From: Amphibalanus amphitrite
Lineage: Eukaryota
Length of the DNA: 64,000 bases
Reading direction: 5' to 3'
Assembly: GCF_019059575.1 (NCBI RefSeq)
Contig: NW_024881521.1
Coordinates: 729,297 to 793,296, forward strand
The notes under the pieces are model-generated. The model had not been told where the DNA came from. It searched no databases and worked only from the letters and a program-made list of their open reading frames with translations. Position numbers and translations under genes: made by a program. This document shows positions 1-57,477 of the stretch, in pieces; within the stretch, counting starts at the first letter, position 1, and each line of letters opens with the position of its first letter.

Positions 1-3000
1 GTCAGTTCTGACAGTCCGAGCGGCCGCGGGGTTTCATCTTGCTGTGCTGGCACGCCGGGCGGCCGTGGGGCCATTGGGTCGCCTAAGCCGGTGCTGGCAG
101 GCCGGGGAGCCTTGGGGTCCCTCCTGTCGGTGCTGGCAGGTCGGGCGGCCTTGGGGTCGCCCCTGTTGGTGCTGGGAGGTCGGGCATGCCTAGCGGCCTT
201 TGGGTCGCCTCTTCTGGTGCTGGCAGGTCGGGCAAGCCGGGCGGTCGTGGGGGTCACCTCTGCCGGTGCTGGCGGGTCGGGTGGCCGTGGGGTCGCTTTG
301 TTTCGTGCTGGCAGGCCGGGCGGCCATGTTTTCGTCCCTGTCAGTTCTGACAGTCCGCGCAGTCGCGGGGTTTCATCTGTCTGTGCTGGCAGGCCGAACA
401 GGCCGGACGGCCTTGGGGTAGCCTCTGCCGTAGCTGGCAGGCCGGGCAGCCGTGGGGTCGCCTCTGCCGGTGCTGGCAGGTCGGGCAGGCCGGGCGGCCA
501 CGTTGTCGCCTCTGCCGGTGCTGGCAGGCCGGACGGCCTTGGGGTAGCCTCTGCCGTAGCTGGCAGGCCGGGCAATTCGGGCGGCCGTGGGGTCGCCTCC
601 GCCGGTGCTGCAAGACCAAGTGGCCGTGGGGTCGCCTCCTTGGGTGCTGGCAGGTCAGGCTTCCTTGGGGTTGCCCCTGTCGGTGCTGGGAGGTCGGGCA
701 GGCCGGGCGGCCACGTTGTCGGCTGTCGCCCATGTTGGTGCTGGGAGGTCGGGAAGCCTGGCGGCCTTTGGGTCGCCTCTTCTGGTGCTGGCAGGTCGGG
801 CAAGCCGGGCGGCCGTGGGGTCACCTCTGCCGATGCTGGCGGGTCAGGCGGCCGTGGGGTCGTCGTTGCCGGTGCTGGCAGGCCGGGAGGGCGTGGGCTC
901 AACTCTGCCGGTGCTGGCAGGTCGGGCGGCCGTGGGGTCGCCTCATTTCGTGCTGGCAGGCCGGGTGGCCACGTTTTCGCCTCTGTCAGTTCTGACAGTC
1001 CGAGCGGCCGCGGGGTTTCATCTTGCTGTGCTGGCACGCCGGGCGGCCGTGGGGCCATTGGGTCGCCTAAGCCGGTGCTGGCAGGCCGGGGAGCCTTGGG
1101 GTCCCTCCTGTCGGTGCTGGCAGGTCGGGCGGCCTTGGGGTCGCCCCTGTTGGTGCTGGGAGGTCGGGCATGCCTAGCGGCCTTTGGGTCGCCTCTTCTG
1201 GTGCTGGCAGGTCGGGCAAGCCGGGCGGTCGTGGGGGTCACCTCTGCCGGTGCTGGCGGGTCGGGTGGCCGTGGGGTCGCTTTGTTTCGTGCTGGCAGGC
1301 CGGGCGGCCATGTTTTCGTCCCTGTCAGTTCTGACAGTCCGCGCAGTCGCGGGGTTTCATCTGTCTGTGCTGGCAGGCCGAACAGGCCGGACGGCCTTGG
1401 GGTAGCCTCTGCCGTAGCTGGCAGGCCGGGCAGCCGTGGGGTCGCCTCTGCCGGTGCTGGCAGGTCGGGCAGGCCGGGCGGCCACGTTGTCGCCTCTGCC
1501 GGTGCTGGCAGGCCGGACGGCCTTGGGGTAGCCTCTGCCGTAGCTGGCAGGCCGGGCAATTCGGGCGGCCGTGGGGTCGCCTCCGCCGGTGCTGCAAGAC
1601 CAAGTGGCCGTGGGGTCGCCTCCTTGGGTGCTGGCAGGTCAGGCTTCCTTGGGGTTGCCCCTGTCGGTGCTGGGAGGTCGGGCAGGCCGGGCGGCCACGT
1701 TGTCGGCTGTCGCCCATGTTGGTGCTGGGAGGTCGGGAAGCCTGGCGGCCTTTGGGTCGCCTCTTCTGGTGCTGGCAGGTCGGGCAAGCCGGGCGGCCGT
1801 GGGGTCACCTCTGCCGATGCTGGCGGGTCAGGCGGCCGTGGGGTCGTCGTTGCCGGTGCTGGCAGGCCGGGAGGGCGTGGGCTCAACTCTGCCGGTGCTG
1901 GCAGGTCGGGCGGCCGTGGGGTCGCCTCATTTCGTGCTGGCAGGCCGGGTGGCCACGTTTTCGCCTCTGTCAGTTCTGACAGTCCGAGCGGCCGCGGGGT
2001 TTCATCTTGCTGTGCTGGCAGGCCGGGCGGCCGTGGGGCCGTTGGGTCGCCTATGCCGGTGCTGTCAGGTCGGGTAGCCTTGGGGTCACTCCTGTCGGTG
2101 CTGGCAGGTCGGGCGGTCTTGGGGTCGCCCCTGTTGGTGCTCGGAGGTCGGGCAAGCCTAGCGGCCTTTGGGTCGCCTCTTCTGGTGCTGGCAGGTCGGG
2201 CAAGCCGGGCGGTCGTGGGGGTCACCTCTGCCGGTGCTGGCGGGTCGGGTGGCCGTGGGGTCGCTTTGTTTCGTGCTGGCAGGCCGGGCGGCCATGTTTT
2301 CGTCCCTGTCAGTTCTGACAGTCCGCGCAGTCGCGGGGTTTCATCTGTCTGTGCTGGCAGGCCGAACAGGCCGGACGGCCTTGGGGTAGCCTCTGCCGTA
2401 GCTGGCAGGCCGGGCAGCCGTGGGGTCGCCTCTGCCGGTGCTGGCAGGTCGGGCAGGCCGGGCGGCCACGTCGCCTCTGCCGGTGCTGGCAGGCCGGGCA
2501 GCCGTGGGGTCACCTCTGCCGGTGCCGCAAGGCCAAGTGGCCGTGGGGTCGCCTCCTTCGGTGCTGGCAGGTCGGGCGGCCTTGGGGTCGCCCCTGTCAG
2601 TTCTGGCAGTCCTGGTGGCCGCGGGATTTCATCTGTCGGTGCTGGCAGGCCGGACAGGCCGTGCGGCCGTGGGGTCGCCTCCTTCGGTGCTGGCAGGTCA
2701 GGCTCCCTTGGGGTCGCCCCTGTCGGTGCTGGGAGGTCGGGCAGGCCGGGCGGCCACGTTGTCGGCTGTCGCCCCCGTTGGTGCTGGGAGGTCGGGAAGC
2801 CTGGCGGCCTTTGTATCGCCTCTTCTGGTGCTGGCAGGTCGGGCAAGCCGGGCGGCCGTGGGGTCACCTCTGCCGATGCTGGCGGGTCAGGCGGCCGTGG
2901 GGTCGTCTTTGCCGGTGCTGGCAGGCCGGGCGGGCGTGGGGCCGTTGGGTCGCCTATGCCGGTGCTGGCAGGTCGGGCGGCCTTGGGGTCGCTCTTGTCG

Positions 3001-3170
3001 GTGCTGGCAGGTCGGGCGGCCTTGGGGTCGCCCCTGTCGGTGCTGGCAGGTCAGGAGGCCTTGGGGTCTCGCCCCTGTCGGTGCTGGCAGGTCGGGCAAG
3101 CCGGGCGGCCGTGGGGTCACCTCTGCCGGTGCTGGCTGGCCGGGCGGCCATGTGGGGTTGGGTCGCCTCT
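1..3170. repeat. Higher-order tandem repeat: 984-bp unit x ~3.2 copies, built from 39/45/48-bp GC-rich subunits (consensus ggtgctggcaggYcgggcRgccgtggggtcgcctctgcc)
   Basis: Positions 1-60 recur at 985-1044 and ~1969-2028. ORF-track peptides from copy 1 and copy 2 are identical (200..421 = 1184..1405). Copy 3 carries small in-frame indels. Long ORFs occur in several frames on both strands, so the ORFs are not treated as coding evidence. Confidence 0.9.
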
Positions 3171-4047
3171 CTTAATGCTGGGATGTCGAAAGGTAGGTGG
3201 GAAGATCCCGCCCCTGATCGTCCTACTTCACCAGAACTCGCTCGACTCTACTCCTGATTTCACATTTTTCTTTAGCTGCACGTGGACCTTTGGTCCGTAT
3301 TTTTTTTTTTTATCGTTTCAGTCCTAAACCTCTTCAGAGACCAAGTCTGCTCCTAAAGCGCAATTTGCACACGCTTCTGATAGAGTTCACAGCGAGCATG
3401 CATCACAACAAATAAAGTAAACTATTTGATATCGCTCGTGTGGCCTTGGTCCAGGGTATGGCATGCCACCCCATACTTATCCCTACTATTTCAAGTTGGT
3501 GGTCTTGAACTTTGGTTGCTTTTATCTTACAGTTTTCCTCCATTCAAACGCCCGGATACCTACTAGAAGATATTGGTAAAACATAGAAAGGCGGCAAACG
3601 CAAGCAAGAAGGGCTTAATATATTTTTAATGCAAATTTTCCTGGCAAAATTAAACTTCTACCAAGTGTTATGCACTCACCTGAAAGGCAAAAAAGCGCAA
3701 GTGCGTAAAAGTCAGCGCGGTGATAAGCAAGAAAAGCGCAACTACTTAGTTGCGCTTTTCTTGCCTATCACATCGTCCTGACCGCTGCAGATACGCTTTT
3801 TTAATAGCTGTGTTTACGCTTTTTTTGCTTGCGGTCAGGGAGGATGAAAAACATTTACGCTTTTCTCGAAAAAGAAAATTTGATATAACTCGAAAATTAT
3901 ACGAATTTCGAAAAACGGTTTTGCAGAAAGATGGAGATTGCTATTCTCTACCTAATGGTATCAAAATCTCAAAATCGAAAAAATGCGAGTTACGCTTTTC
4001 TTGGTTGTCACGGCAGTCTTGAATAATGCAGTATCTGTTCTTTTCAG

Positions 4048-4136
4048 AATGATTTGCGCGAGTTCTGGTGTCTTCTGGACTGGGCTAACCCCGGGTGTCT
4101 CGGCACCTGTGAACAGTTCGTCAACGACTTTGTGAG
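4048..4136 (+). CDS. ERCC6L2: ERCC6L2-like SNF2 ATPase, exon a (NDLREFWCLLDWANPGCLGTCEQFVNDFV; SNF2 motif III region)
   Basis: Acceptor ttttcag|AAT at 4046-4047, donor AG|gtgagg at 4137. The peptide matches the LQNNxxELW...DWAxPGxLG region of ERCC6L2 orthologues. Confidence 0.75.
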
Positions 4137-4374: not shown

Positions 4375-4528
4375 GCCGATAGAGCGTGGTCGCCGGCGCG
4401 GTGCCGTGAAGCGGGACGTGGCCGAGTCCTGGCGGCGCCGGGAGCTGCTGGCCACAATGCGGCAGCGCTGGATGCTGCGGCGAACCAAGGCGCTCATTGC
4501 CGACCAACTGCCGAACAAGACCGACCAG
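4375..4528 (+). CDS. ERCC6L2: ERCC6L2-like exon b (RPIERGRRRGAVKRDVAESWRRRELLATMRQRWMLRRTKALIADQLPNKTDQ)
   Basis: TACTAAC branch motif at 4344-4350, acceptor ccccag|G, donor CAG|gtacgt. FLRRTK..I.DQLP.K is the SNF2 motif IV signature. Phase is continuous with exon a (AG+G=Arg). Confidence 0.85.
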
Positions 4529-4789
4529 GTACGTCAGTGTGGGGTGGAGCGGCACGGACCTGGCTAGGAGAGGGAGGAACGGAGAGGAGAGAGGACTGGG
4601 ATTTTGTTTGTTCCCAGAAATGCACTATGACCCCAAAGAGTGTTTTCTGTCCCCAGATAGTTCGTGTCTTGCTCCATCCCAAAATTAGGCACCGTACCTA
4701 CGCCCCCAGGCCCTGCTAATAGCATAGTGTGCTTCCAATTTGTAAAAGTTTACCGGTGCCCTCAAATACGGCAGCCTGTTCTGTGGTGT

Positions 4790-5023
4790 GCCATGTATTA
4801 TGTCTTTAGATGCTGTCCTGTGTTCCCTCAGATACTGTACTGTCCGCCGTCGCCGCTGTAGCGACAAGTCTACAGCGCCGTCCCCCTGTCTGCAGCTGTA
4901 TTCTGTTGTGTCTGAACATTGTGTCCTCTGTCCTCAGATAGTGTACTGTTGTGTCTGGATGCTGTGTCCTCTATCCTCAGATAGTGTACTGTTGTGTCTG
5001 AATGTAGTGTCCTCTGTCCTCAG
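4790..5023 (+). repeat. Tandem array of ~41-bp units duplicating the 3' splice site and first bases of ERCC6L2-like exon c (tgtgtcctctgtcctcagatagtgtactgttgtgtctgaa x3). A longer copy (~4823-4900) carries 60 nt of exon with an in-frame TAG.
   Basis: Direct reading shows repeated cctcagatagtgtactgt motifs upstream of the real acceptor at 5022-5023. Confidence 0.85.
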
Positions 5024-5164
5024 ATAGTGTACTGTCCGCCGTCGCCGCTGCAGCGTCAGGTCTACAGCGCCGTCCTGGACCGGCCCGATGTCCGTCTGCT
5101 GGTCCGCCGCTCCCGGCCCTGTGACTGCGGCAGCGGAAGGAGGGCGGCGCGCTGCTGCCTGAAG
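5024..5164 (+). CDS. ERCC6L2: ERCC6L2-like exon c (IVYCPPSPLQRQVYSAVLDRPDVRLLVRRSRPCDCGSGRRAARCCLK)
   Basis: Acceptor cctcag|ATA, donor AAG|gtaagg. The C.C.SG....CC motif is characteristic of ERCC6L2 (human ...EPCTCRSGQKRRNCCYK...). Confidence 0.85.
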
Positions 5165-6337: not shown

Positions 6338-6471
6338 TATCAACAAACTGTACTAGTTTGCTCACATATTTATGAATTAAGTGTTTGCCGAATGCTCATT
6401 CATTTTGCGATATTTTATATTGGCAATATGATAATGAAGACTGTGTGATCACACCCTGCCTTCATTTGCAG

Positions 6472-6581
6472 GTGCTGACCACCTTAATTGAGCACTTCCG
6501 TCAGAAATCTCAGAAGGTGCTGATATTCTCGTATTCCACTAGAATGCTCAAGATAATTCGGGCCTACGTATTAAATCAACA
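6472..6581 (+). CDS. ERCC6L2: ERCC6L2-like exon f (VLTTLIEHFRQKSQKVLIFSYSTRMLKIIRAYVLNQ(Q); start of helicase C domain)
   Basis: Acceptor tttgcag|GTG, donor CA|gtgagt (phase 2). KVLLFS.ST..LD is SNF2 motif IV/V context. Confidence 0.8.
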
Positions 6582-6907
6582 GTGAGTATTTCCTGGCTCT
6601 TCTTTCAACTGATTGGTTCTTCGTCGCACTACGGAACGTTTCATTGGTTCCTTCACTTGTGCGCCTTGTTTGGTTTTAGGATACAATGCAGGCATGTTTC
6701 AAAAATGAAAGATTACCTGGCTGTGTAAGGCAAGAGCACATGTCAAGCAGTTAGCTACAATATCAAATGACCAGAGCTGCTGTTGGGTGATTGATGATTC
6801 TCTTCAGAGGTTGATCGTGAACTACCACCATTTTCGGTCTCATCAGGTCACCATCACATTCTCCTGACTAATACTGTGCCCGTTTGACCTGACCCGCACC
6901 TCTCCAG

Positions 6908-7111
6908 GTTTGACCTGACCTACATTGACGGCGAGACGCCTGCCTCGGAGCGGCCGGCGCTGTGCGAGCAGTTCTGCCGCCGGCCGCAGTGGGCGGTGGC
7001 GCTAGTGTCGACCCGGGCCGGCGGCCAGGGGCTGAACATTGTGGGCGCCACGGCAGTGGTGGTGGTGGACCCCAGCTGGAACCCGGCGCACGACCTGCAG
7101 GCGCAGGACAG
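6908..7111 (+). CDS. ERCC6L2: ERCC6L2-like exon g (FDLTYIDGETPASERPALCEQFCRRPQWAVALVSTRAGGQGLNIVGATAVVVVDPSWNPAHDLQAQD(R); helicase-C motifs V-VI)
   Basis: Acceptor ctccag|G, donor AG|gtgaga. STRAGGQGLN...DPSWNPAHDLQAQDR matches the canonical SNF2 STKAGGLGLN...DPDWNP..D.QA.DR. Confidence 0.9.
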
Positions 7112-9110: not shown

Positions 9111-9378
9111 GTGAGTCGAGAACTAATTGTACGGAGGGAACGGACTAACGGCGAACCCTGAGGAAGAGGGACGGACTTCAGAGGAATCGAAATGGGCTAA
9201 GGGTTGTTATGCTGTGTGGAGGTTAGTCAAGTGTTCACCAAAAGGATAACTAATCTCTTGAGTTATTGCTGGTTGTGGATGTTGCAATGGCGGATGACCG
9301 TGGATACCGAGTCCGACTAATGGCCAAATCATTCTTGCTGAACTCCATTAACACGCTTTTGTCTCCGTTTCTCTCCAG

Positions 9379-9589
9379 CGGAGCGGGAGCGGCCGCGGGG
9401 CCCAGCGGACGCCCCGCCAGCCTCCGCCGGTACCTCCCGGCGGCCTGCCCCGTCCGTCCGACCCGACCCCGCAGCACAGCGCGGCGATCCGGCCGTCTGG
9501 GAGCCGCAGCGGCCGCCGGCTACCCTCCGTCCTTACTGGAGAGGCCAGTCCGGCGCCGCGGGGGAGCGACGAGTCACCGGCCGGATCAG
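9379..9589 (+). CDS. ERCC6L2: ERCC6L2-like exon l (Pro/Ser/Arg-rich low-complexity)
   Basis: Acceptor ctctccag|CGG, donor TCAG|gtagga. Frame is open. Supported only by splice-phase continuity. Confidence 0.4.
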
Positions 9590-9739
9590 GTAGGACAAGG
9601 GGTGGTAGGAGGAGACAGGATTCGGGGAGAAGGAGAGAGGAGTCGGGGAGGAGGAGAGAAGAGTCGGGAGGGAGGCAGGGCTCAAGCCGGAGGAGGCAGG
9701 GCTCCGGCCAGCGGAGAACTCGTCGGCATCGACCCACAG

Positions 9740-10272
9740 TGGTGGATCAGGCTACTAGTACGGACTGGGAGGAGGCAGGGGGACTGACAGGGGCGGTAGC
9801 TGGTGACCAGAGTGGCGAGGATGCTGCTGCGCCGGCGGCGGAAGGGGCTGTGTCTGATCATGGTGCTCGAACACCTCCGACCATGGCGGCTGCCGACAGC
9901 GATGACTCGGTTGTTCTGGCCACACCGCCGCGATTAGCCACTCCGCCCCCGGTGGTGGAGATAGAAGAGGATGTCGAACACCCTGTACCCCCTCCGATCT
10001 CGGAGATCGGCCCGCGCTCACCAGAGACCGTGGTCGCCTCCAGCGGCCCCAGTACCCCCAAACGGCCGCGGACCACAGCTGCCTCAGGCGGCGGCACGGC
10101 CATGGACGCGTTCTTAGACCGGCTGCTGGAGTCTCCCGTGCGCCGCCCGCCGCCCAGCCGCCGCCCCCGCCCCCGCCCCCGCCCTATAGCCTCCGTCGTC
10201 ACTGAAGACAGGCAGGAGGGTGACGTCATCAGCCGCTGGGTCCGTGATGGGAAGGTGTCCATTGTGAAATGA
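9740..10272 (+). CDS. ERCC6L2: ERCC6L2-like terminal exon (...VVDQATSTDWEE...PRPRPRPIASVVTEDRQEGDVISRWVRDGKVSIVK*); TGA at 10270-10272
   Basis: Acceptor cccacag|TG gives G+TG=Val, phase 1 from exon l. Matches ORF 9739..10272 (177 aa). An AT-rich 3' UTR follows. Confidence 0.5.
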
Positions 10273-27635: not shown

Positions 27636-27920
27636 CCTCGCAGTGGCACCACCGGCCTCGCAGGGGCACCACCGGCCTCGCAGGCATCACGGCATCACGC
27701 AGGCCGCAGGGGCACCTTGGGCCTGTCGGGGGCATCACGGGCCTGTTGGGGGCACTTAAGGCTTGTCAGGGGCACCACAGTCCTGTCAGGTCCCAGGGGC
27801 ATCAGCAGCCTAGCAGGGGCACCCTAGGCCCGCCAGAGGCTCCACAGGCCTGCCAGGGTCCAGGGGCACCACAGGCCTAGCAAGGGCACCACGGGCCTGT
27901 CAGGGGCACCTCAGGCTCCC
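27636..27920. repeat. Minisatellite, ~21-bp unit (ggggcaccacgggcctgtcag-like) x ~13
   Basis: Direct reading of 27640-27910. Confidence 0.8.
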
Positions 27921-36295: not shown

Positions 36296-36432
<137 letters not shown>

Positions 36433-39400
36433 TAGCCAGTCAGCCAGCCAGTCAGCCAGCCAGACACACAGACAGACAGATGAACGAGACCGGGAGGTGA
36501 GTCTGCTCCCACTCTGCACCGCGACGACCGCCGGAACGGAAGATCGCGGGTTGCAACAATCAGTGCGAAAGTTCAGCCCTCTACCTATAATCCTTTTCTC
36601 CTGGCGGACAGGTCCTGAGAGCTGAGAGTCCAACACATCCAAACCGCAGGCCGCACCCGCGAGGTCATGGTGTCGACAGCAATGAGAGGGGATGGGACTG
36701 GAGGGGAGGGGAGGGAGTCGCCTCGACCTTCAGTCATCACGATTAATACCGCAGCCAAACGTGGCCGGCCGGCTGACTGCAGCAGCGTAGACAACGAGCG
36801 GCAGGGAATCGGCCTGCACAGACTAATTGGTCCGCGACCAGATGACCATCCGCGGGTGGCGTCACGGGCTCATGATGACGTCAGGAGATCTCATGACGCC
36901 AGGGGATCTGATGACGTTCGAGATAGGTGAATATACCGGGCTGGTGAGGAGTCCGTCTCCAGAAGTCCCTAGTGTGTCTCGGTGCTGATACCAGCTCGTC
37001 CGCCAGGGCATGCCGTGTGTATTTGGCCAGGAAGCACTCACCCAACGAGAGCACCGGTGACGCCCCCTGAGACCTGGCATCACCCCAGTGCGTCTCGGCC
37101 GGTCGGCACGCCTCTGGCCTTACTCCAGGCCTGGGTCATGTCGGAAGGGTCGTGCCTCAGGCCACTGGCACTAACCGGTCCACCACGCCGACCCGAAACG
37201 ACGCCCACTGAGCCGCCGCCGGCAGTGATCCTGATTCATGGTCGCCGAAAAGGAAATCTCGCCTCCGAGTTTTGGTCAGTCAAGGCAATTTCAGTGAGCC
37301 ATGTGTGAAATCCAGAACCGCAAGAGCCTGGGGAAATGCTTGCACTCAGCACGATGCATATCCTCCGAAGGAGTTGTTTTCCGATTCAGGACCCGAATTC
37401 GTGGCAGTATCGTTCCCGTCTTAATGCACTAACGTCGTCGCTTCATGACTGTAGTTTGATATGCACTTCGAGTCTGACATGTAGATGGCTACTGTCTGTC
37501 TGTCGGCGCATGTAATGGAACCGCCGCACAGATACCGCCGGCCGCCTCCAGCCGCGTCTCGGCCATCTCAGCCGTCTCCGCCGCTGTCCCCTGCAGAGCA
37601 CGCCATTCCCAGCAATTACGGCACGATCATAAATACGGCGGCGTGTCCCGTCTGAGGCCGACTGAGAGCCGCGCCCGCCGCCAGCACCGGACCGAGCACC
37701 TTTACGGTCTCACCGGGCGACACTCTATCGGCCGGCGCGGTAAAACCTCGGCCCGCCGTGATAAAAGAAAATCTAATTAAGTGGAAGGCCGGAGATTCGT
37801 CCAAACAGCGCTCGTACCGGGCCCGGCAGACGTGTCGGCCGGCCGGGTCAAAATTAGCCTTCAGTTGCCGCAATAAAACGGGATGAGACCAGAGTCGGGC
37901 AGAGGGTAAGGTTAATATCCTGGGAATGCTGTCGACGCCGGCCGTACAGGAACCGCAGCTATGCGCCGCCGCCGCCGCCGCCGGTCGGTCGGAGCGCCGG
38001 CGGGCTGCGGGCCGCGCCCAGACAGCCGCCGCCGCGGCCCGGGGACACTTCAAACGCTGCTGAGTGAGTGTGACAGCGCCGCGACAGCGGAGAATCTGCC
38101 GTCGGCTCACATCACACAGCCGTCCGGATGGACGTCACCGGCGTCGGCCAAACAAAGCATAATGTGGTCTGCAGAGCGGACGACAAATCAGACGGGGACA
38201 GCTCCGGTGATGAGGCGACTGTCGGCCGGGAGAGTCGAGCCGGCCAGCGGGCGGCGCCGTGCCCTCCGTCGCATAATGGGCCCAGCGGGAGGCCGCCGGT
38301 CGGGCCGACGGCCCAGGACGCCTCCTCTGTCGCCGGAGCGGAGGAGCACACCAAACACAACAGCCGCCCGGCGCACCCCGGCGCACTCCGGCGCAGAGCG
38401 CGCTACTCGGCGCAGGTCATCCAAACAGCGCCGCGTTTCTGGCAGCGCCTCCCCGGCCCGGCTCGGCGTGGATCGCCGTCGAACGCCGGCCGTCGACAGG
38501 CAGTGTCGTCTGGCCGTGTCCAGGTGTCAGCTCGAAGGTCGCGCTCGTTCCTGAGCGCTCAGCTGTGTCGCCGTCTCGCCGCTCGGAGACACAGCGCCCG
38601 GTGTCACCTCGCTCGCCAGCTCGGCGCCGGCTCGTGTGTCGGAACAGACGAGGGGCGGCCGCGCGTGGCGGCGGTGTCGTCGAAAATTGCCAGCAATGCC
38701 ACAATTCACGCGCCCGGGAGTCTTACTAAGCTTCCGTCATCCACGCGTCCACCCCGACTCCGTCAGCCGTGATTCTACCGGCGCCGCGCGCAGCCCCAGA
38801 CGCGCACTGATTGGCTCTAATTCCTCTGCGGTCCCTGACCAAACAAAGCGGCCCGAGTGGGTTCTGAAGTCGACGGCGGCGCGGCGGCGACCGTCCGGTA
38901 AAAACAGCCATTGTGGTGTCGGCGCCGGCCCCGCCCCGTCGAGTGCTCGTTACCGGCGTGCCACTGCCGACCGGTAGAGGAGGGAGGTGTGCGCGGACGA
39001 GCGGCGAACGCTCAGAGTCAACAGGTGTGAGACGCGCGGTCGGCTGCCGGGTCAGACAGACGGGTCGATCGACATGGCGTCACCGGGGCAACACTGGAGT
39101 ACAACAGTCTGCGAGAGGGAACTAAAAACGGTCGACTGAGCTCGCCGGCTCGCTCGCCGGATTGCACAACTCGTCTGTGTGCTCTGACAGGGGAGTGAGT
39201 AAGGGGAGGGGAGTGACCGGGTGGATCGGAGCCCCGGGAGCGCTCTCGGTCAACTGCAGAGACCCTTCTGAGCTCTGACGGCTCCCGCAGCGGTGCCGAT
39301 CTCGGCGACAGCTCGCCACGGGCGGCCGAGGCTGCGCACCGCCCCGCCCGGCCGGGGTCCGCCGGCGACGGCAGAAATAAAACAGTGCATTACTCGCTTC

Positions 39401-40494
39401 CGGTGCCGGCGGCGACGTTTTGTTTTTGCACGGCGGCGGCGGACGATCATGAAAGGCGGCGCCGGGGCACCCCGCGGCCCCGGCTCAGCCGGATCTCCGC
39501 GACGGGCGCGGACGGCCGACCGGCAGTCACAGGCAGAGGATCACGGTCGAGGGAACTTCCGTCGCCCGTGAGCCCTCGGCTGCCGGCGATCCGCTCCGCC
39601 CGCTCCTCAGCGCTGGCCTAATTCCATGTTGTCAAATCCGAAAATTGGCGACTGGACGACAAGATGAATGATGAGCTGGCCCGCACGCCACTATCGCCCC
39701 TATCGGCTATCGGCAGCCGAAGGGCCACGGGCTAGGTTCGTGTGCGTCAGCTGAACGGTAATGAAGTGGGATGCTCCCGGTGTGGGATACGACTTTCGAC
39801 CTTCCTGCCGTGCTCCTCGGCACACCTGAGGGCGATTTTCTCATGCGCTGCCCGCTCTGCCTTCGGGTGCGTTGGCGGCGACTCGCGTGGAAGATGGCCG
39901 ACCAGCGATTAGACGCTTATTTTATTAACAGAACTAGCCGCTTTCCGTATAAGCGCCGTAAATAAATGAGCCAGGAGACGAAAACAAACACAGTGATCGT
40001 CCATGGCTCCGCAGTGATAACGGCCGATTGCCGCCGAAACAAAGGCCCGGGGCCGGGCGGCGGCGGCGGGCGCTTGGTGATGACTCGCAGCCCACGAGCC
40101 GGGCTATCAGTTCTCCCAGGGACGGCGCACCGCTCCGGGCTGGACGCGTGCCTCGTCCGGCCACAGACTGCCCGTCTATCTGCTGCCCTATCTGCGTGTG
40201 TGTCACCACACTTGCCAGGAACAGATAGCACGGGAGAGTGATGACAGACTGCGTCTAAACTGGGGTCGCCGAACCGACCGGGCCGCCACAGGTCGCCGCC
40301 TCTGATGGACTGGCATGTCAGACAGTACCGCTGTGTTTGTATATCTATCTTGTCTGTCAATATCCACCTTACTGTCCCAGGAGCTTCTCAGTCTTTACAA
40401 CGTCGATAGTCCTTCACGCATGATTCACAGCAGTCGCTCTACGCCCTCCTAGTTCCTACCAACCCTCAGTGCCTTCCAAGTCATACCACCCCTG

Positions 40495-40735
40495 CCGCCT
40501 CTCAGTGCCTCCCTCCGCCCCCAGTGCCTCCCTCCGCCTCCCTCCGCCCCCAGTGACTCCCGCCGCCTCTCAGTGCCTCCCTCCGCCTCCCTCCGCCCCC
40601 AGTGACTCCCGCCGCTTCCCTCCACCCCATCCAGCGCCTCCCGCTGCCTCTCAGTGCCTCCCTCCGCCTCCCTCCGCCCCCAGTGACTCCCGCCGCTTCC
40701 CTCCACCCCTTCCACCGCCTCCCGCTGCCTTCTGC
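40495..40735. repeat. C/T-rich minisatellite (~70-80-bp units: cagtgcctccctccgcctccctccgcccccagtgactcccgccgc...)
   Basis: Direct reading. Accounts for the long ORFs on both strands at 40449-41129. Confidence 0.8.
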
Positions 40736-46769: not shown

Positions 46770-49700
46770 ATGCCTGTCGAGTTGCAGAGCAGCCGATGCA
46801 TGACGCAGACCGGGTGTGTATGTGTGTGTGTGTGTGGGGGGGGGGTGCGTGTGTGTGTGTGTGTGCGTGTGTGTTAAGCGCAAAGTGGCCGAGGCGTCGG
46901 CAGCGGACCAGGTGTGTAGTGAAGACAGAGTGGCCGAGGCGTCGGCAGCGGACCAGGTGTGTAGTGAAGACAGAGTAGCCGAGGCGTCGGCAGCGGACCA
47001 GGTGTGTAGTGTAAACAGAGTAGCCGAGGCGTCGGCGCCGGACCGGATGTATGCGTATGTCGATGCAGAAATACGGAGGCGGCCACTTAGAAAATACTTG
47101 AGACCTTTTTACAAAGAGACTCCTTGAGTGCTAAACCGAGCCTCCAAGGTGACTGGCTGAGATGTGTTTCTGCGGCAGCGTATGTCCATCAAGTTGCGTT
47201 CGGAAGCGCTTCTCGAAATGCGTGGTCTGTTTTGACAAGGGGCATTATCCTAAAGCTGGTCTCTGAGGCAAAAAAAAAGAGATGCTGTTTTCCAGTCCCG
47301 GCGAAGAAAAAAAAAAGAATGTCGAGTTGCAGAGCAGCCGAGGCGTCGGCGGCGAACCTGTTGTATATGTATCTACGTATGTATGTATGTATGTATGTAT
47401 GTATGTATGTATGTATGTATGTATGTATGTATGTATTCACGTCATAGGGCACATCCCCGTAATTGAGGCTTTCCTGTACCCTGGAGTCGTTAATATAAAA
47501 CAGACGATCAGTTGGGTCAGCATACACATACATACACATGCACACACGTGCACCCACATGCACACATCTAACCAACCCCCCACGTTGCCTCGTCAACAAG
47601 TGCTGCTTTATCTCGCTATTGAAGCGGCTCCCAGGCAGGTTTCGTGTCACGCTTAGCAAGATGTTATATGCGATGACAATAGCGTGTCTGAACTACGCCT
47701 GCCAGACTCCAATCGAATCGCCGGCGTGACTAAATGGTCTGCGTTCCGTGTTGTACGGTACGGCGGTGAACATCTCCACGAGTGACCAGGTCGCCGGCGA
47801 TCGACTCAGGCTCTGATGTCACTAAAAGGCGCTTTAGTAAGCTAAGTGCCTACCGTGTTGCAGAGGGCCGAGGTGACGGCGGCGCACCTGGCCCTGTAAA
47901 TTGCAGAGTAGCCGAGGCGTCGGCGGCGGGCCTGATGCGTGTGCATGGGTTGCAGATTAGCCGAGGCGCCGGTGGCGGACCCGATGTGTGCAGGGGTTAC
48001 AGTGCAGCCCAGGCGTCGGCGGCGGGCCCGATGTATGTGCATGAGTTGCAGAGTAGCTGAGGCGTCGGCGGCGGTCCTGATGTACTTACGTGCAAGGGTT
48101 GCAGCGTAGCCGAGGCGTCAGTGGCGGACCTGATGCGTGTGCGTGAGTTGCAGAGTAGCCGAGGCGTCGGCGGCGGGCCTGATGTATGTGCCGTTGCAGA
48201 GTAGCCGAGGCGTCGGCGGCGGACCTGATGCATGTGCAGTTGCAGAGAAGCCGAGGCGTCGGCGGCGGACCTGATGTATGTGCCGTTGCGGAGTAACCGA
48301 GGCGTCGGGGGCGGACCTCATGCATGTGTGTGAGTTGCAGAGTAGCCGAGGCGTCGGCGGCGGACCTCATGTACGTGCGAACATGGGTGGAGAATTGTTT
48401 TCAAAGTTGGTATGGCGCCAGTTGCTTGAAACAATACTATCGTGTTTTATTCTTATCAAACTGAAAACCTTAAATTTCGTAGCTTTTACCCTGAAAAAGT
48501 TGGTATGGCATTGCCATACCATCTTTTAAGTTGGTGTGGCGCGTGCCATGCCTGCCATACCATATTCTCGACCCATGCCGGTGCAGAGTTTATGGGGTGG
48601 CTGAGGCTATACGACGGCGAGCCTGATGTGTGTGCATGAGTAGCAGAGGAGCCGAGGCGTCGGCGGCGGACCTGATGCAAGTGCATGAGTTGCAGAGTAG
48701 CCGAGGCGTCGGCGGCGGACCTGATGTGTGTGCGTGATTTGCAGAGTAGCCGAGGCGTCGGCGGCGGACCTGATGTATGTGCGTGATTTGCAGAGTGGCC
48801 GGGGCGTGTCGGCGAACCTGATGTGTGTGCGTGGGTTGCAGAGTAGCCGAGGCGTCGGTGGCGGACCTGGTGTATGTGCAGTGCAGAGTAGTGATGTCAA
48901 CTACGGAAAATCGGAATACCGATACCAAACCAAGTACCAACCTAGGGTGCATTATACCAACAAATTACCGAACACATTAGGAATCAAATACCAAGTACCG
49001 AGTTGGTATCAGTATGGTATCGGTATACCGAAAAGTTGTATCCGAGGACATCTCTACTGCAGAGTAGCCGAGGCGTCGGCGGCGGACCTGATGCATGTGG
49101 GTGCCGAGGCGTCGGCGGCGGACCTGATGTATGTGCGGTGCAGAGTAGGACGTCGACTACGGAAAAATCGGAATACCGATACCAAACCAAGTACCAACCT
49201 AGGGTGCATTATACCAACAAAATACCGAACACATTAGGAATCAAATAGCAAGTACCGAGTTGGTATCAGTATGGTATCGGTATACCGAAAAGTTGTATCC
49301 GAGGACATCTCTACTGCAGAGTAGCCGAGGCGTCGGCGGCGGACCTGATGCATGTGGGTGCCGAGGCGTCGGCGGCGGACCTGATGTATGTGCGGTGCAG
49401 AGTAGGACGTCGACTACGGAAAATCGGAATACCGATACAAAACCAAGTACCAACCTAGGGTGCATTATACCAACAAAATACCGAACACATTAGGAATCAA
49501 ATAGCAAGTACCGAGTTGGTATCAGTATGGTATCGGTATACCGAAAAGTTGTATCCGAGGACATCTCTACTGCAGAGTAGCCGAGGCGTCGGCGGCGGAC
49601 CTGATGCATGTGCGTGCCGAGGCGTCGGCGGCGGACCTGATGCATGTGCGTGCCGAGGCGTCGGCGGCGGACCTGATGCATGTGCGTGCCGAGGCGTCGG

Positions 49701-49910
49701 CGGCGGACCTGATGTATGTGCGTGCCGAGGCGTCGGCGGCGGACCTGATGCATGTGCATGAGTATTTATGTGCGTGAGTTGCAGAGTAGCCGAGGCGTCG
49801 GCAGCGGGCTTGATGTATGTGCAGTGCGGAGTAGCCGGGGCGTCGGACGCATTGCAGTTGCAGAGTAGCCGAGGGGTCGGCGGCGGACCTGATGTGTGTG
49901 CATGAGTTGT
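46770..49910. repeat. Composite satellite block. It contains a 45-bp unit x3.5 (46885-47045). A ~49-bp monomer (gagttgcagagtagccgaggcgtcggcggcggacctgatgtatgtgcgt) forms arrays at 47880-48370 and 48620-48890. A ~245-bp higher-order unit x3 lies at 48895-49630, and a 31-bp sub-array at 49560-49905. (GT)n sits at 46814-46874 and (ATGT)n at 47376-47436.
   Basis: Direct reading. Identical ORF-track peptides at 49003..49248, 49260..49493 and 49516..49761 confirm the ~245-bp period. Confidence 0.85.
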
Positions 49911-56423: not shown

Positions 56424-56531
<108 letters not shown>

Positions 56532-57477
56532 CATCTTTTTCTCTTACACTCTTTCTCTCTAACCTCATTTTGATACGATGCCTGAACAGAGGAACGTTTT
56601 AGGAACAGCTCGGTGATCGTCTAAGACGGACATCGACTTTAGTCCTGAATCACCCTGACGACGATAAATGATGGGTGACGAGTTACACATGTCCATCTTA
56701 TGACCCGATGAACGACGGAGGCAAAGTCTCCTGTTCAATGGGATCCGCTCGAGTTCTCTCGTCTGGGAGGCGAGTATAATCAACGGCGCTTCAGCGTGTA
56801 GAGCTTCGCGGTCCGTCGATTGTGCTTATTTGCCGGCACGGAATTTTGTATAACCGAAATTGGCGAGGCGCTTTGACGAATTTTTGGTCATTTGATACAA
56901 AAACTGTTTTGAGTAGTCCCATCTCTATTATACGATGACGGTGACCACACGACGGTTTCAGCGCCGCGCAAGGAATTCTTTTCGGTTCGTCGGGCTGCCG
57001 GCGTCAGTCAGCATCGGCGTCAGTCAGCGACTGACTGAAGTGGCTGGCCGCCGCGCTGCCCCAAACGTCTACCGCGCGTGGGAGGCGCCAACACGAAGCT
57101 CGTGAGAGAGAGGAGGCCGGCGCGATCGTGTCAGTTTCTGCAGACGCTCCTCGGCGTGAGAAAACACATGTAATCTCGTCAGCGTTCCGGACATATATCA
57201 TCGCTGTCAGATCAGACGCAGGCATTCCCTCGTCGTTAGGTGTCCGTCGATCGGAGAAAGTTATAGCCAATCGCAGCCGCAGAGTAATTGAGTCGTAAAG
57301 AATAAAATATAAATATATTTCCGCCTGGCTGACAGGCTGCTCAGACAACAATGGGAGGAGCGTTTTGCATGCTTGGTCGCCCCGGACATCGTCGAAACAT
57401 AAATCAGAGAGAAATACAATCGCACCCCGCCTTGCTGTCCGATCGTCCGCTTCATCGCATCCCGAGCAGGTACTCAC

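Follow-up and report, generated by a model that had tools for sequence, protein, structure and literature searches.

Among described systems, the array analysed here comes closest to the intronic GC-rich minisatellites (VNTRs) of animal genes, such as the human hypervariable CEB1 and HRAS1, whose units likewise measure tens of bp. The unit of CEB1 is also about 39 bp. CEB1 has been characterised as a G-rich human minisatellite (PMC2673046). The likeness to this type extends to high G+C, a strong strand asymmetry in which one strand bears the G-rich runs, internal variation, presumed growth by slippage and unequal exchange, and an apparently non-coding nature, but the array differs in its clear 984-bp higher-order unit, and sequence similarity to these loci is absent. 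A second point of comparison is the higher-order repeat (HOR) of alpha-satellite type, which the array resembles in having monomers about 80% alike, blocks 98-100% alike, and sub-blocks of 87 and 126 bp. However, its monomer is 39 bp rather than ~171 bp, no more than about three copies of the block can be seen, its location is probably a euchromatic intron instead of a centromere, and the remaining 60 kb hold no other copy. The third comparison is with coding repeats, that is, the VNTR exons of mucin and proline-rich-protein genes, arachnid silk genes, and the protein P0121 with its unit DLPAPREAIPRPG. Their unit is also a multiple of 3, and they share with the array a long open frame and a low-complexity Gly/Ala or Pro/Ala/Thr translation, whereas the array is open on both strands, lacks a start and well-defined exon borders, and yielded no related proteins.

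Here we describe the anatomy and frame statistics of this array, its lack of coding signatures and the helicase exons next to it; the array occupies the left edge of a window of 64,000 nucleotides from Amphibalanus amphitrite (contig NW_024881521.1, positions 729,297 to 793,296). Its parts are as follows.

Positions 1 to 3190, plus strand: tandem array of ~75 monomers, recognised by TRF, anchor matches and composition.
Positions 5 to 988, plus strand: HOR copy 1, with unit lengths of 39, 47, 39, 39, 48, 49, 39, 39, 39, 48, 39, 48, 39, 48, 39, 39, 55, 47, 48, 39, 39, 39 and 39 bp.
Positions 989 to 1972, plus strand: HOR copy 2, 984 bp, identical to copy 1.
Positions 1973 to 2938, plus strand: HOR copy 3, with 20 substitutions, loss of one GTT and monomer-scale rearrangements.
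Positions 2939 to 3190, plus strand: degenerating array tail, with units of 47, 39, 39, 41, 48 and 46 bp that bring two further registers.

The GC-rich monomers fill the stretch from base 1, where the window cuts the array, to a right end that decays at about 3170-3190, as the original prediction had it. TRF reports 74 copies of a 39-bp unit, 58 anchor matches fall in the array against 0.07 expected by chance, and the tandem repeat itself is above chance. The monomer consensus is GTGCTGGCAGGYCGGGCGGCCGTGGGGTCGCCTCTGCCG. Its 9-bp internal sub-repeat, GYCGGGCRR, is doubled in about one-third of units, which brings these to 48 bp. On the plus strand, G is abundant and A scarce (A 7.4%, C 29%, G 42%, T 21%). 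Only one canonical G-quadruplex motif (four G3 runs with loops of at most 7 or 12 nt) occurs in the ~3.2 kb, a density equal to that of the rest of the window, although G2-type motifs are enriched in the array (67 on the plus strand and 4 on the minus strand). A G-quadruplex-forming minisatellite of CEB1 type, with one canonical motif per unit, was considered, and the idea was dropped because canonical motifs are not enriched.

Within each HOR, anchor-to-anchor spacings are 39 bp (fourteen times) and 48 bp (five times), plus 47, 49, 55 and 47 bp, and copy 3 and the tail contribute further units of 47, 41 and 46 bp whose lengths are not multiples of 3. Thus, of the periods of 39, 45 and 48 bp first read from the sequence, 39 and 48 are confirmed and 45 belongs to a single unit of copy 3, where it results from the loss of GTT, but the claim that all subunits are multiples of 3 does not hold. 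At least five small indels have lengths that are not multiples of 3 (+8, +1, +7, -1 and +2), and those inside the HOR offset each other pairwise. The excess of in-frame over out-of-frame indels that a coding repeat was expected to show between copies is not seen, as out-of-frame indels are at least equally common. Individual monomers are about 80% alike, with departures from the consensus at 148 of some 900 core positions.

At the higher level the repeat has a period of precisely 984 bp, equal to 328 codons, as first proposed, and made up of 23 monomers; such blocks are more alike (100% and ~98% identity) than adjacent monomers, so that a genuine higher-order periodicity is present. Copies 1 and 2 show no difference over 984 bp. 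Copy 3 is ~98% identical and rearranged: it carries 20 substitutions relative to copy 2 in the colinear parts, the 3-bp GTT loss noticed earlier, and monomer-scale rearrangements with a net gain of 78 bp, equal to two monomers. The perfect duplication could be an artefact of assembly, with a different true copy number in the array, and the total absence of differences between copies 1 and 2, when copy 3 differs at ~2% of sites, speaks for this. However, a recent unequal exchange would look no different, and the copy junctions are seamless and in register; an artefact is unlikely.

The array lies upstream of, and on the sense strand of, a gene whose exons lie on the plus strand from 4048 on.

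Positions 4048 to 4131, plus strand: first helicase exon seen, NDLREFWCLLDWANPGCLGTCEQFVNDF, with acceptor tctgttcttttcag before it, encoding SNF2 motif III onward.
Positions 3190 to 3198, plus strand: donor-like site AAG|GTAGGT, strong as read from the sequence, just past the array.

The acceptor of exon 4048-4131 is strong. Best PDB matches of the helicase exons are Rhp26/RAD26/ERCC6 (E ~1e-35), and in Pfam they match SNF2-rel_dom from profile position 165 as well as Helicase_C; by these similarities, the gene encodes an ERCC6/RAD26-family SNF2 DNA-repair helicase. Since exon 4048 starts at profile position 165 and sequence of helicase motifs I-III, including TGTPxQ, is absent from every plus-strand frame of 1 to 4047, the earlier exons presumably lie to the left of the window. 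Hence, with the array upstream of exon 4048-4131 on the sense strand, an intronic and non-coding position is most likely, and the designation of the array as an intronic HOR satellite is borne out as far as the window allows, an internal helicase exon lying directly downstream. The phase of the donor-like site fits both the plus frame and the exon at 4048, and the site is probably cryptic or coincidental. An AATAAA placed earlier at 3408-3413 is actually at 3411-3416; whether it could serve the plus-strand frame as poly(A) signal was considered, but it is a lone hexamer in AT-richer flank and lends that frame no support. As for the orthologous intron in close relatives, the contigs of the ephrin-exon proteins P0071, P0099, P0001 and P0013 stop short of the helicase intron.

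Two long open frames run through the array.

Positions 1 to 3327, plus strand: open frame (frame 0), rich in Gly, Ala, Ser, Arg and Val, taken as a compositional by-product and not as a gene.
Positions 3 to 3050, minus strand: open frame, rich in Pro, Ala and Thr (..DLPAPAEATPRPPGLP..), with no start codon, judged a by-product.

The plus frame is open from base 1 for 1108 codons to a stop at 3325-3327, and is listed as an ORF of 1078 aa at 91 to 3327. The original prediction of a 1078-codon frame is correct as to this ORF, but not as to 1078 independent codons, because its effective sequence is one 328-codon unit read about three times, twice identically. That other frames are also long was rightly noted, but the equally long minus frame had been overlooked: it is open for 1016 codons from 3050 to 3, where it leaves the left edge, and its bounding stop is the TCA at 3051-3053 in the array tail. 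Third codon positions of the minus frame are the same sites as third positions of the plus frame. Likewise overlooked, the consensus monomer lacks stops in all six frames because A makes up only 7% of the plus strand (as does T of the minus strand). In the HOR, stop trinucleotides number 8 on the plus strand (0/5/3 by phase, from about five independent events) and 12 on the minus strand (0/6/6 by phase); 10 of the latter 12 are TCA, and six arise at three consensus TCG sites, none in the open register. Given units of 47, 49, 55 and 47 bp, the plus frame reads the monomers in three registers, so that the same monomer is translated as GAGRSGGRGVASA, VLAGRAALGSPLS or CRCWQVGRPWG.

How often such frames arise without selection was estimated with two null models. 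Dinucleotide shuffles leave the plus frame open with P 0.20 and the minus frame with P 0.023; when shuffling preserves the monomer structure, these values rise to 0.48 and 0.08, respectively. Hence, the open plus frame is not above chance (P ~0.2 to 0.48). As a separate observation, finding both frames open at once is somewhat unusual even in the shuffles that preserve structure (P ~0.045).

A constraint at the protein level was sought in the codon-position spectrum, in the ratio of synonymous to nonsynonymous changes and in the register of the units, and no signature of it was found in the array. In real coding repeats the register stays constant and most variation falls at third positions, as in the genuine coding 39-bp repeat of P0121, our positive control, with 31/14/59 differences at first, second and third positions (p=3e-7). 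In contrast, the array is read in three registers, and its monomers diverge evenly at 53/43/52 (p=0.54). Likewise, the 20 substitutions between copies 3 and 2 fall 6/6/8 by codon position, with neutral synonymous:nonsynonymous counts of 6:14 in the plus frame and 5:15 in the minus frame. The substitution patterns between copies, which had been proposed as a check, thus do not favour coding.

Searches for relatives of the array were equally unrewarding. Pfam gave no credible match for either translation and none at all for the minus frame; the one plus-frame candidate, DD_K/Dermaseptin (E 3e-05), was rejected as a short low-complexity match with no significant stretches. A word-indexed protein search of both frames against 5.8 billion clusters found no match at E<=1e-3, and an exhaustive HMMER search found no match for the plus frame and two marginal low-complexity matches for the minus frame, P0121 (library-wide E 1.2e-5) and P0122 (E 6.4e-4). 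The minus-frame peptide unit DLPAPAEATPRPP agrees at 10 of 13 residues with the P0121 unit DLPAPREAIPRPG, and the two also have the 39-bp unit length in common. P0121 is a bacterial TPR protein encoded in a bacterial operon, however, and the ~73% similarity of the array to its DNA over 60 nt is as expected from the common motif and G+C; homology to P0121 was rejected on these grounds. Scanning the window against Rfam and for tRNAs gave no match. In metagenome contigs, three anchors spaced 39-48 bp apart located 27 loci, all of them unrelated repeats by blastn and by eye, and a blastn comparison of the HOR with positions 4300-64000 of the window gave no match. A 67-bp repeat at 27759-27916 has CTGGCAGGCC in common with the array and was considered as a relative, but its alignment is no better than that of shuffles.

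Taken together, the array is very probably a non-coding, GC-rich, strand-asymmetric minisatellite in a helicase intron, and its long open frames are by-products. It would have begun with the basic 39-bp unit, some units being extended to 48 bp by duplication of the 9-bp sub-repeat. Replication slippage and unequal exchange may then have produced the nested sub-blocks of 87 and 126 bp and, from these, the 984-bp block of 23 monomers, which appears to have been duplicated very recently, given two identical copies and a third at ~98%. Because of its sense-strand position inside the helicase intron, the array would presumably be transcribed as part of the pre-mRNA and then spliced out. Three causes could account for the open frames. 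First, with 7% A on the plus strand and 7% T on the minus strand, a consensus free of stops in six frames would be expected. Second, most units are of equal length modulo 3, and a given type of stop-creating mutation would therefore always fall in the same register. Third, a single stop-free 984-bp block may have been copied, its divisibility by 3 being a 1-in-3 event. Selection is needless for explaining long frames on both strands.

A related possibility is that the array is non-coding now, with a 39-bp unit descended from a 13-codon coding repeat or from a triplet-based simple sequence. In keeping with this, 39 and 9 bp are both multiples of 3, and in the register of the plus-strand ORF the consensus unit has RNY triplets at 8 of 13 positions (p~0.02) and G at 9 of 13 first codon positions. 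This periodicity is weak and comes from a single 39-mer, however, and divisibility of a length by 3 is a 1-in-3 event. Moreover, the window holds no similar sequence elsewhere, metagenome contigs hold no related array, and the protein searches found no donor protein family. Such a descent is therefore improbable, and for the earlier proposal of a codon-periodic satellite with a coding exon as its source, little speaks besides the weak triplet bias.

It is still less probable that the minus frame is an exon of a nested antisense gene, encoding a Pro/Ala/Thr-rich protein with a 13-residue repeat of mucin-like or proline-rich kind. The minus frame is the less expected of the two open frames (P 0.023 to 0.08), its translation resembles a plausible proline-rich repeat, P0121 and P0122 are the sole library matches, and an acceptor-like CCTGCCAG occurs on the minus strand of every monomer. 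However, this frame has no start codon and its bounding stop lies inside the array, its register alternates between PAPAEATPRPP and ARPASTDRGDPKA, and its substitutions (5:15) show no positional bias. In addition, its lack of stops is partly explained, as six of the 12 minus-strand stops arise at the three consensus TCG sites and thus in the other two registers. Because P0121 is bacterial, as is the operon that encodes it, its likeness to the minus frame is taken as a convergent low-complexity match inflated by repetition, and the word-indexed search gave no match. That the minus frame is translated, as a nested antisense gene for a Pro/Ala/Thr-rich protein of 13-residue DLPAPxEAxPRPx units, is extremely unlikely. 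If true, it would mean a tandem array serving as, or becoming, coding sequence, with a motif also found in a bacterial 39-bp coding repeat.

Equally hard to credit is a real repetitive coding exon on the plus strand, encoding a Gly/Ala/Ser/Arg-rich protein of the helicase transcript or of another plus-strand gene: the frame is open for 1108 codons and 150 nt past the repeat, its unit has an RNY-like triplet bias in the ORF register, and the phase of the donor-like site at 3192/3193 suits the exon at 4048, but chance opens this frame 20-48% of the time, units of 47, 49, 55, 47, 41 and 46 bp put it in three registers, a third-position excess is absent (synonymous:nonsynonymous 6:14), neither large protein search gave a homologue, and in the helicase such an exon would separate ATPase motifs II and III by >1000 residues and take the place of the TGTPxQ of motif III. 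The suggestion of a Gly/Ala/Arg-rich repetitive coding exon is not supported, given its three registers, its many out-of-frame indels, its lack of a third-position excess, its neutral substitution ratios, an equally open antisense strand and the want of a plus-frame homologue in two very large protein searches.

In conclusion, the biological weight of the intronic minisatellite is small, as it is one more intronic GC-rich minisatellite, although its length is probably polymorphic and it may form a local hotspot of unequal exchange in the helicase gene. Kilobase-long ORFs in A-poor or T-poor tandem arrays, even on both strands, are almost no evidence of coding, and only independent sequence should count towards the length of such an ORF, which here makes 328 codons and not 1078. 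The matter is quickly settled by asking in which register the units are read, how the differences between units and between copies are spread over codon positions, and how a coding repeat behaves as positive control.

One tandem array occupies the first ~3190 bp of the window; Tandem Repeats Finder counts 74 copies of its 39-bp unit and gives secondary periods of 48, 87 and 126 bp. The array has a G+C content of 71–72% and a G-rich, A-poor forward strand (A 7.4%, C 29%, G 42%, T 21%), its CpG observed/expected ratio is 0.76 versus ~1.05 elsewhere (3171–64000), and a conserved 18-mer, found 58 times versus 0.07 expected, is confined to the array region. When every unit was measured from the anchor GTGCTGGCAGG, one higher-order block was seen to consist of 23 units (in order 39, 47, 39, 39, 48, 49, 39, 39, 39, 48, 39, 48, 39, 48, 39, 39, 55, 47, 48, 39, 39, 39 and 39 bp) that sum to 984 bp, bearing out the period of 328 codons in the original prediction. 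The left end of the array is truncated by the window edge, and the blocks are arranged as follows:

5–988, block 1, 0 differences from block 2
989–1972, block 2, 0 differences from block 1
from 1973, block 3, ~800 bp colinear with 20 substitutions, one GTT missing (a loss already predicted and confirmed by the block alignment) and a two-monomer rearrangement

After block 3 comes a tail in which the array decays, ending near 3190. In the alignment of the 23 monomers, eight units reach 48 bp through an internal duplication of 9 bp. The claim that every subunit length is divisible by 3 fails: individual monomers carry +8 (unit at 44), +1 (at 217), +7 (at 683) and −1 (at 738), and the tail contributes another unit of the +8 type, one of 41 bp (+2) and one of 46 bp. 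There is no enrichment of canonical G-quadruplex motifs in the array, and thus no structure-based role is proposed for it.

The forward frame is indeed open from base 1 to a stop at 3325–3327, and it survives because the indels that are not multiples of 3 cancel pairwise within the block; the AATAAA predicted beyond it is present, at 3411–3416 and not where it was first placed. This frame reads one and the same DNA unit in three registers (as GAGRSGGRGVASA, as VLAGRAALGSPLS and as CRCWQVGRPWG), which is not how a protein repeat under selection would be read. The minus strand is also open, for 1016 codons from 3050 to the window edge, where the frame runs off and so is missed by an ORF listing; its translation is Pro/Ala/Thr-rich (including PGLPDLPAPAEATPRPP) and likewise shifts register (ARPASTDRGDPKA). 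The two open frames have their third codon positions in common, and the consensus 39-mer is stop-free in all six frames.

How far such openness exceeds chance can be judged from the unique 984 bp. Its forward strand has eight stop trinucleotides, 0/5/3 by phase, which represent only ~5 independent events because they are common to homologous monomers. The 12 stops of its minus strand split 0/6/6 between the phases; TCA accounts for ten, six of them at the three consensus TCG sites, and none of these sites is in the open register. Dinucleotide shuffles of the block leave at least one forward frame open in 20% of trials and a minus frame open in 2.3%, and shuffles keeping each alignment column, and with it the monomer structure, give 48% and 8%, and both together 4.5%, although these still exaggerate independence. 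Furthermore, because 984 bp is divisible by 3, itself a 1-in-3 event, openness of a frame in one block carries over to all copies. The “1078-codon ORF” is ~328 independent codons and unremarkable, and having a frame open on each strand is at most mildly unusual.

The array translations have no credible match in Pfam, and a word-indexed search found none at E≤1e-3 for either frame among 5.8 billion protein clusters. HMMER, run exhaustively against 1.84 billion representatives with both one-block translations joined as the query, gave no match for the forward half and two marginal ones for the minus half. The better (E 1.2e-5) is P0121, a 1198-residue TPR protein whose neighbouring genes (radical-SAM enzyme, NADH dehydrogenase subunit) are clearly bacterial. 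Its N-terminal part is built from repeats of 13 residues, DLPAPREAIPRPG, each encoded by 39 bp (L034, 2541–3065). Its unit and the array antisense unit DLPAPAEATPRPP share 10 of 13 consensus residues. Striking as this is, homology was rejected: the likeness is treated as convergence, because alignments of one repeat on another score too high and DNA identity reaches only ~73% over 60 nt, the level to be expected from the common motif and G+C.

P0121 served instead as a positive control of equal unit length and G+C for the codon-position test. Its units differ 31/14/59 by codon position (p=3e-7), and the 23 monomers differ from their own consensus 53/43/52 at positions 1/2/3 (chi-square p=0.54). 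Substitutions between copies, suggested as a check on coding, give no sign of it: the 20 between blocks 2 and 3 fall 6/6/8 by codon position, and their synonymous:non-synonymous ratios, 6:14 in the forward and 5:15 in the minus frame, are about the neutral expectation.

From 4048 on, the forward strand holds the exons of an ERCC6/RAD26-group SNF2 helicase, with PDB matches to E ~1e-35; its Pfam domains are Helicase_C and, starting at profile position 165, SNF2-rel_dom:

4048–4131, ~4400–4600, ~5500, 6376–6582, ~6800–7000 and ~7300, forward strand, helicase exons from motif III through Helicase_C

Exon 4048–4131 follows a strong acceptor (tctgttcttttcag) and starts at the N of motif III, TGTPxQN. 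No helicase motif I, II or III sequence occurs in any forward frame of 1–4047, and therefore the preceding exons must lie left of the window, from which we infer that the array is intronic to the helicase gene, on its sense strand. Read as an exon, it would interrupt the ATPase core with over 1000 residues and cost the protein motif III. A strong donor-like AAG|GTAGGT just after the array (3190–3198) is in phase with the forward ORF and phase-compatible with exon 4048, but is regarded as cryptic or coincidental. The same presumed intron holds a palindromic, foldback-like, AT-rich element at 3684–4014 (25-nt arms, 96% complementary, at 3720–3771; another inverted copy at 3988–4014), which may be a small MITE-type insertion. 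A long Arg/Ser/Pro-rich ORF at 9352–10269 may be a C-terminal helicase exon.

The window outside the array is eukaryotic and intron-containing, with many simple and tandem repeats, and includes an ephrin gene (Pfam PF00812):

20220–20079, 17046–16878, ~15286–15164 and ~13123–12959, minus strand, ephrin exons, the last closing with a hydrophobic tail and stop

Its best named relatives are arachnid (the pseudoscorpion Cordylochernes, 78%, and the mites Oppiella and Leptotrombidium). The first two exons, one continuous ORF in the relatives L001 and L002, are split here by a 3.0-kb intron between ..YIIYN and VSKEEY... The array lies ~9.8 kb past the ephrin stop codon and is thus outside this gene. 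Other repeats are:

4903–5035, 43-bp repeat
36299–36480, (ACAG)45
40490–40730, C-rich 81-bp repeat
46884–49757, second, unrelated tandem-repeat complex, with 45-, 49- and 36-bp units having GCCGAGGCGTCGGCGGCGGACCTGATG in common and a 257-bp higher-order unit (48846–49657, 97% matches); also yields long artefactual ORFs
56429–56560, CT-rich run

Across 3171–64000 there is no CpG depletion, and G+C per kb is ~0.42–0.69, mostly 0.55–0.65, unusually high for an arthropod.

Taken together, the array is very probably a minisatellite of an ordinary kind, intronic, non-coding and organised in a higher-order repeat, its open frames being side effects. Most of the modest remaining probability is shared by an exon-derived origin and the translation readings, real translation of either strand having small chances. 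The sole hint of codon periodicity is an RNY pattern in 8 of 13 triplets of the consensus unit in the forward ORF register (p ~0.02, 39-mer shuffled), which fits descent either from a simple sequence built on triplets or from an old coding repeat and is uninformative on present function. In the minisatellite, the 9-bp duplication, a copy of the internal sub-repeat GYCGGGCRR, and the +7, a local tandem duplication, are typical slippage products, and the nested periods of 87, 126 and 984 bp with identical blocks suggest repeated unequal exchange, the last event probably very recent. Composition, shared register and recent block duplication together very probably account for the open frames of both strands.
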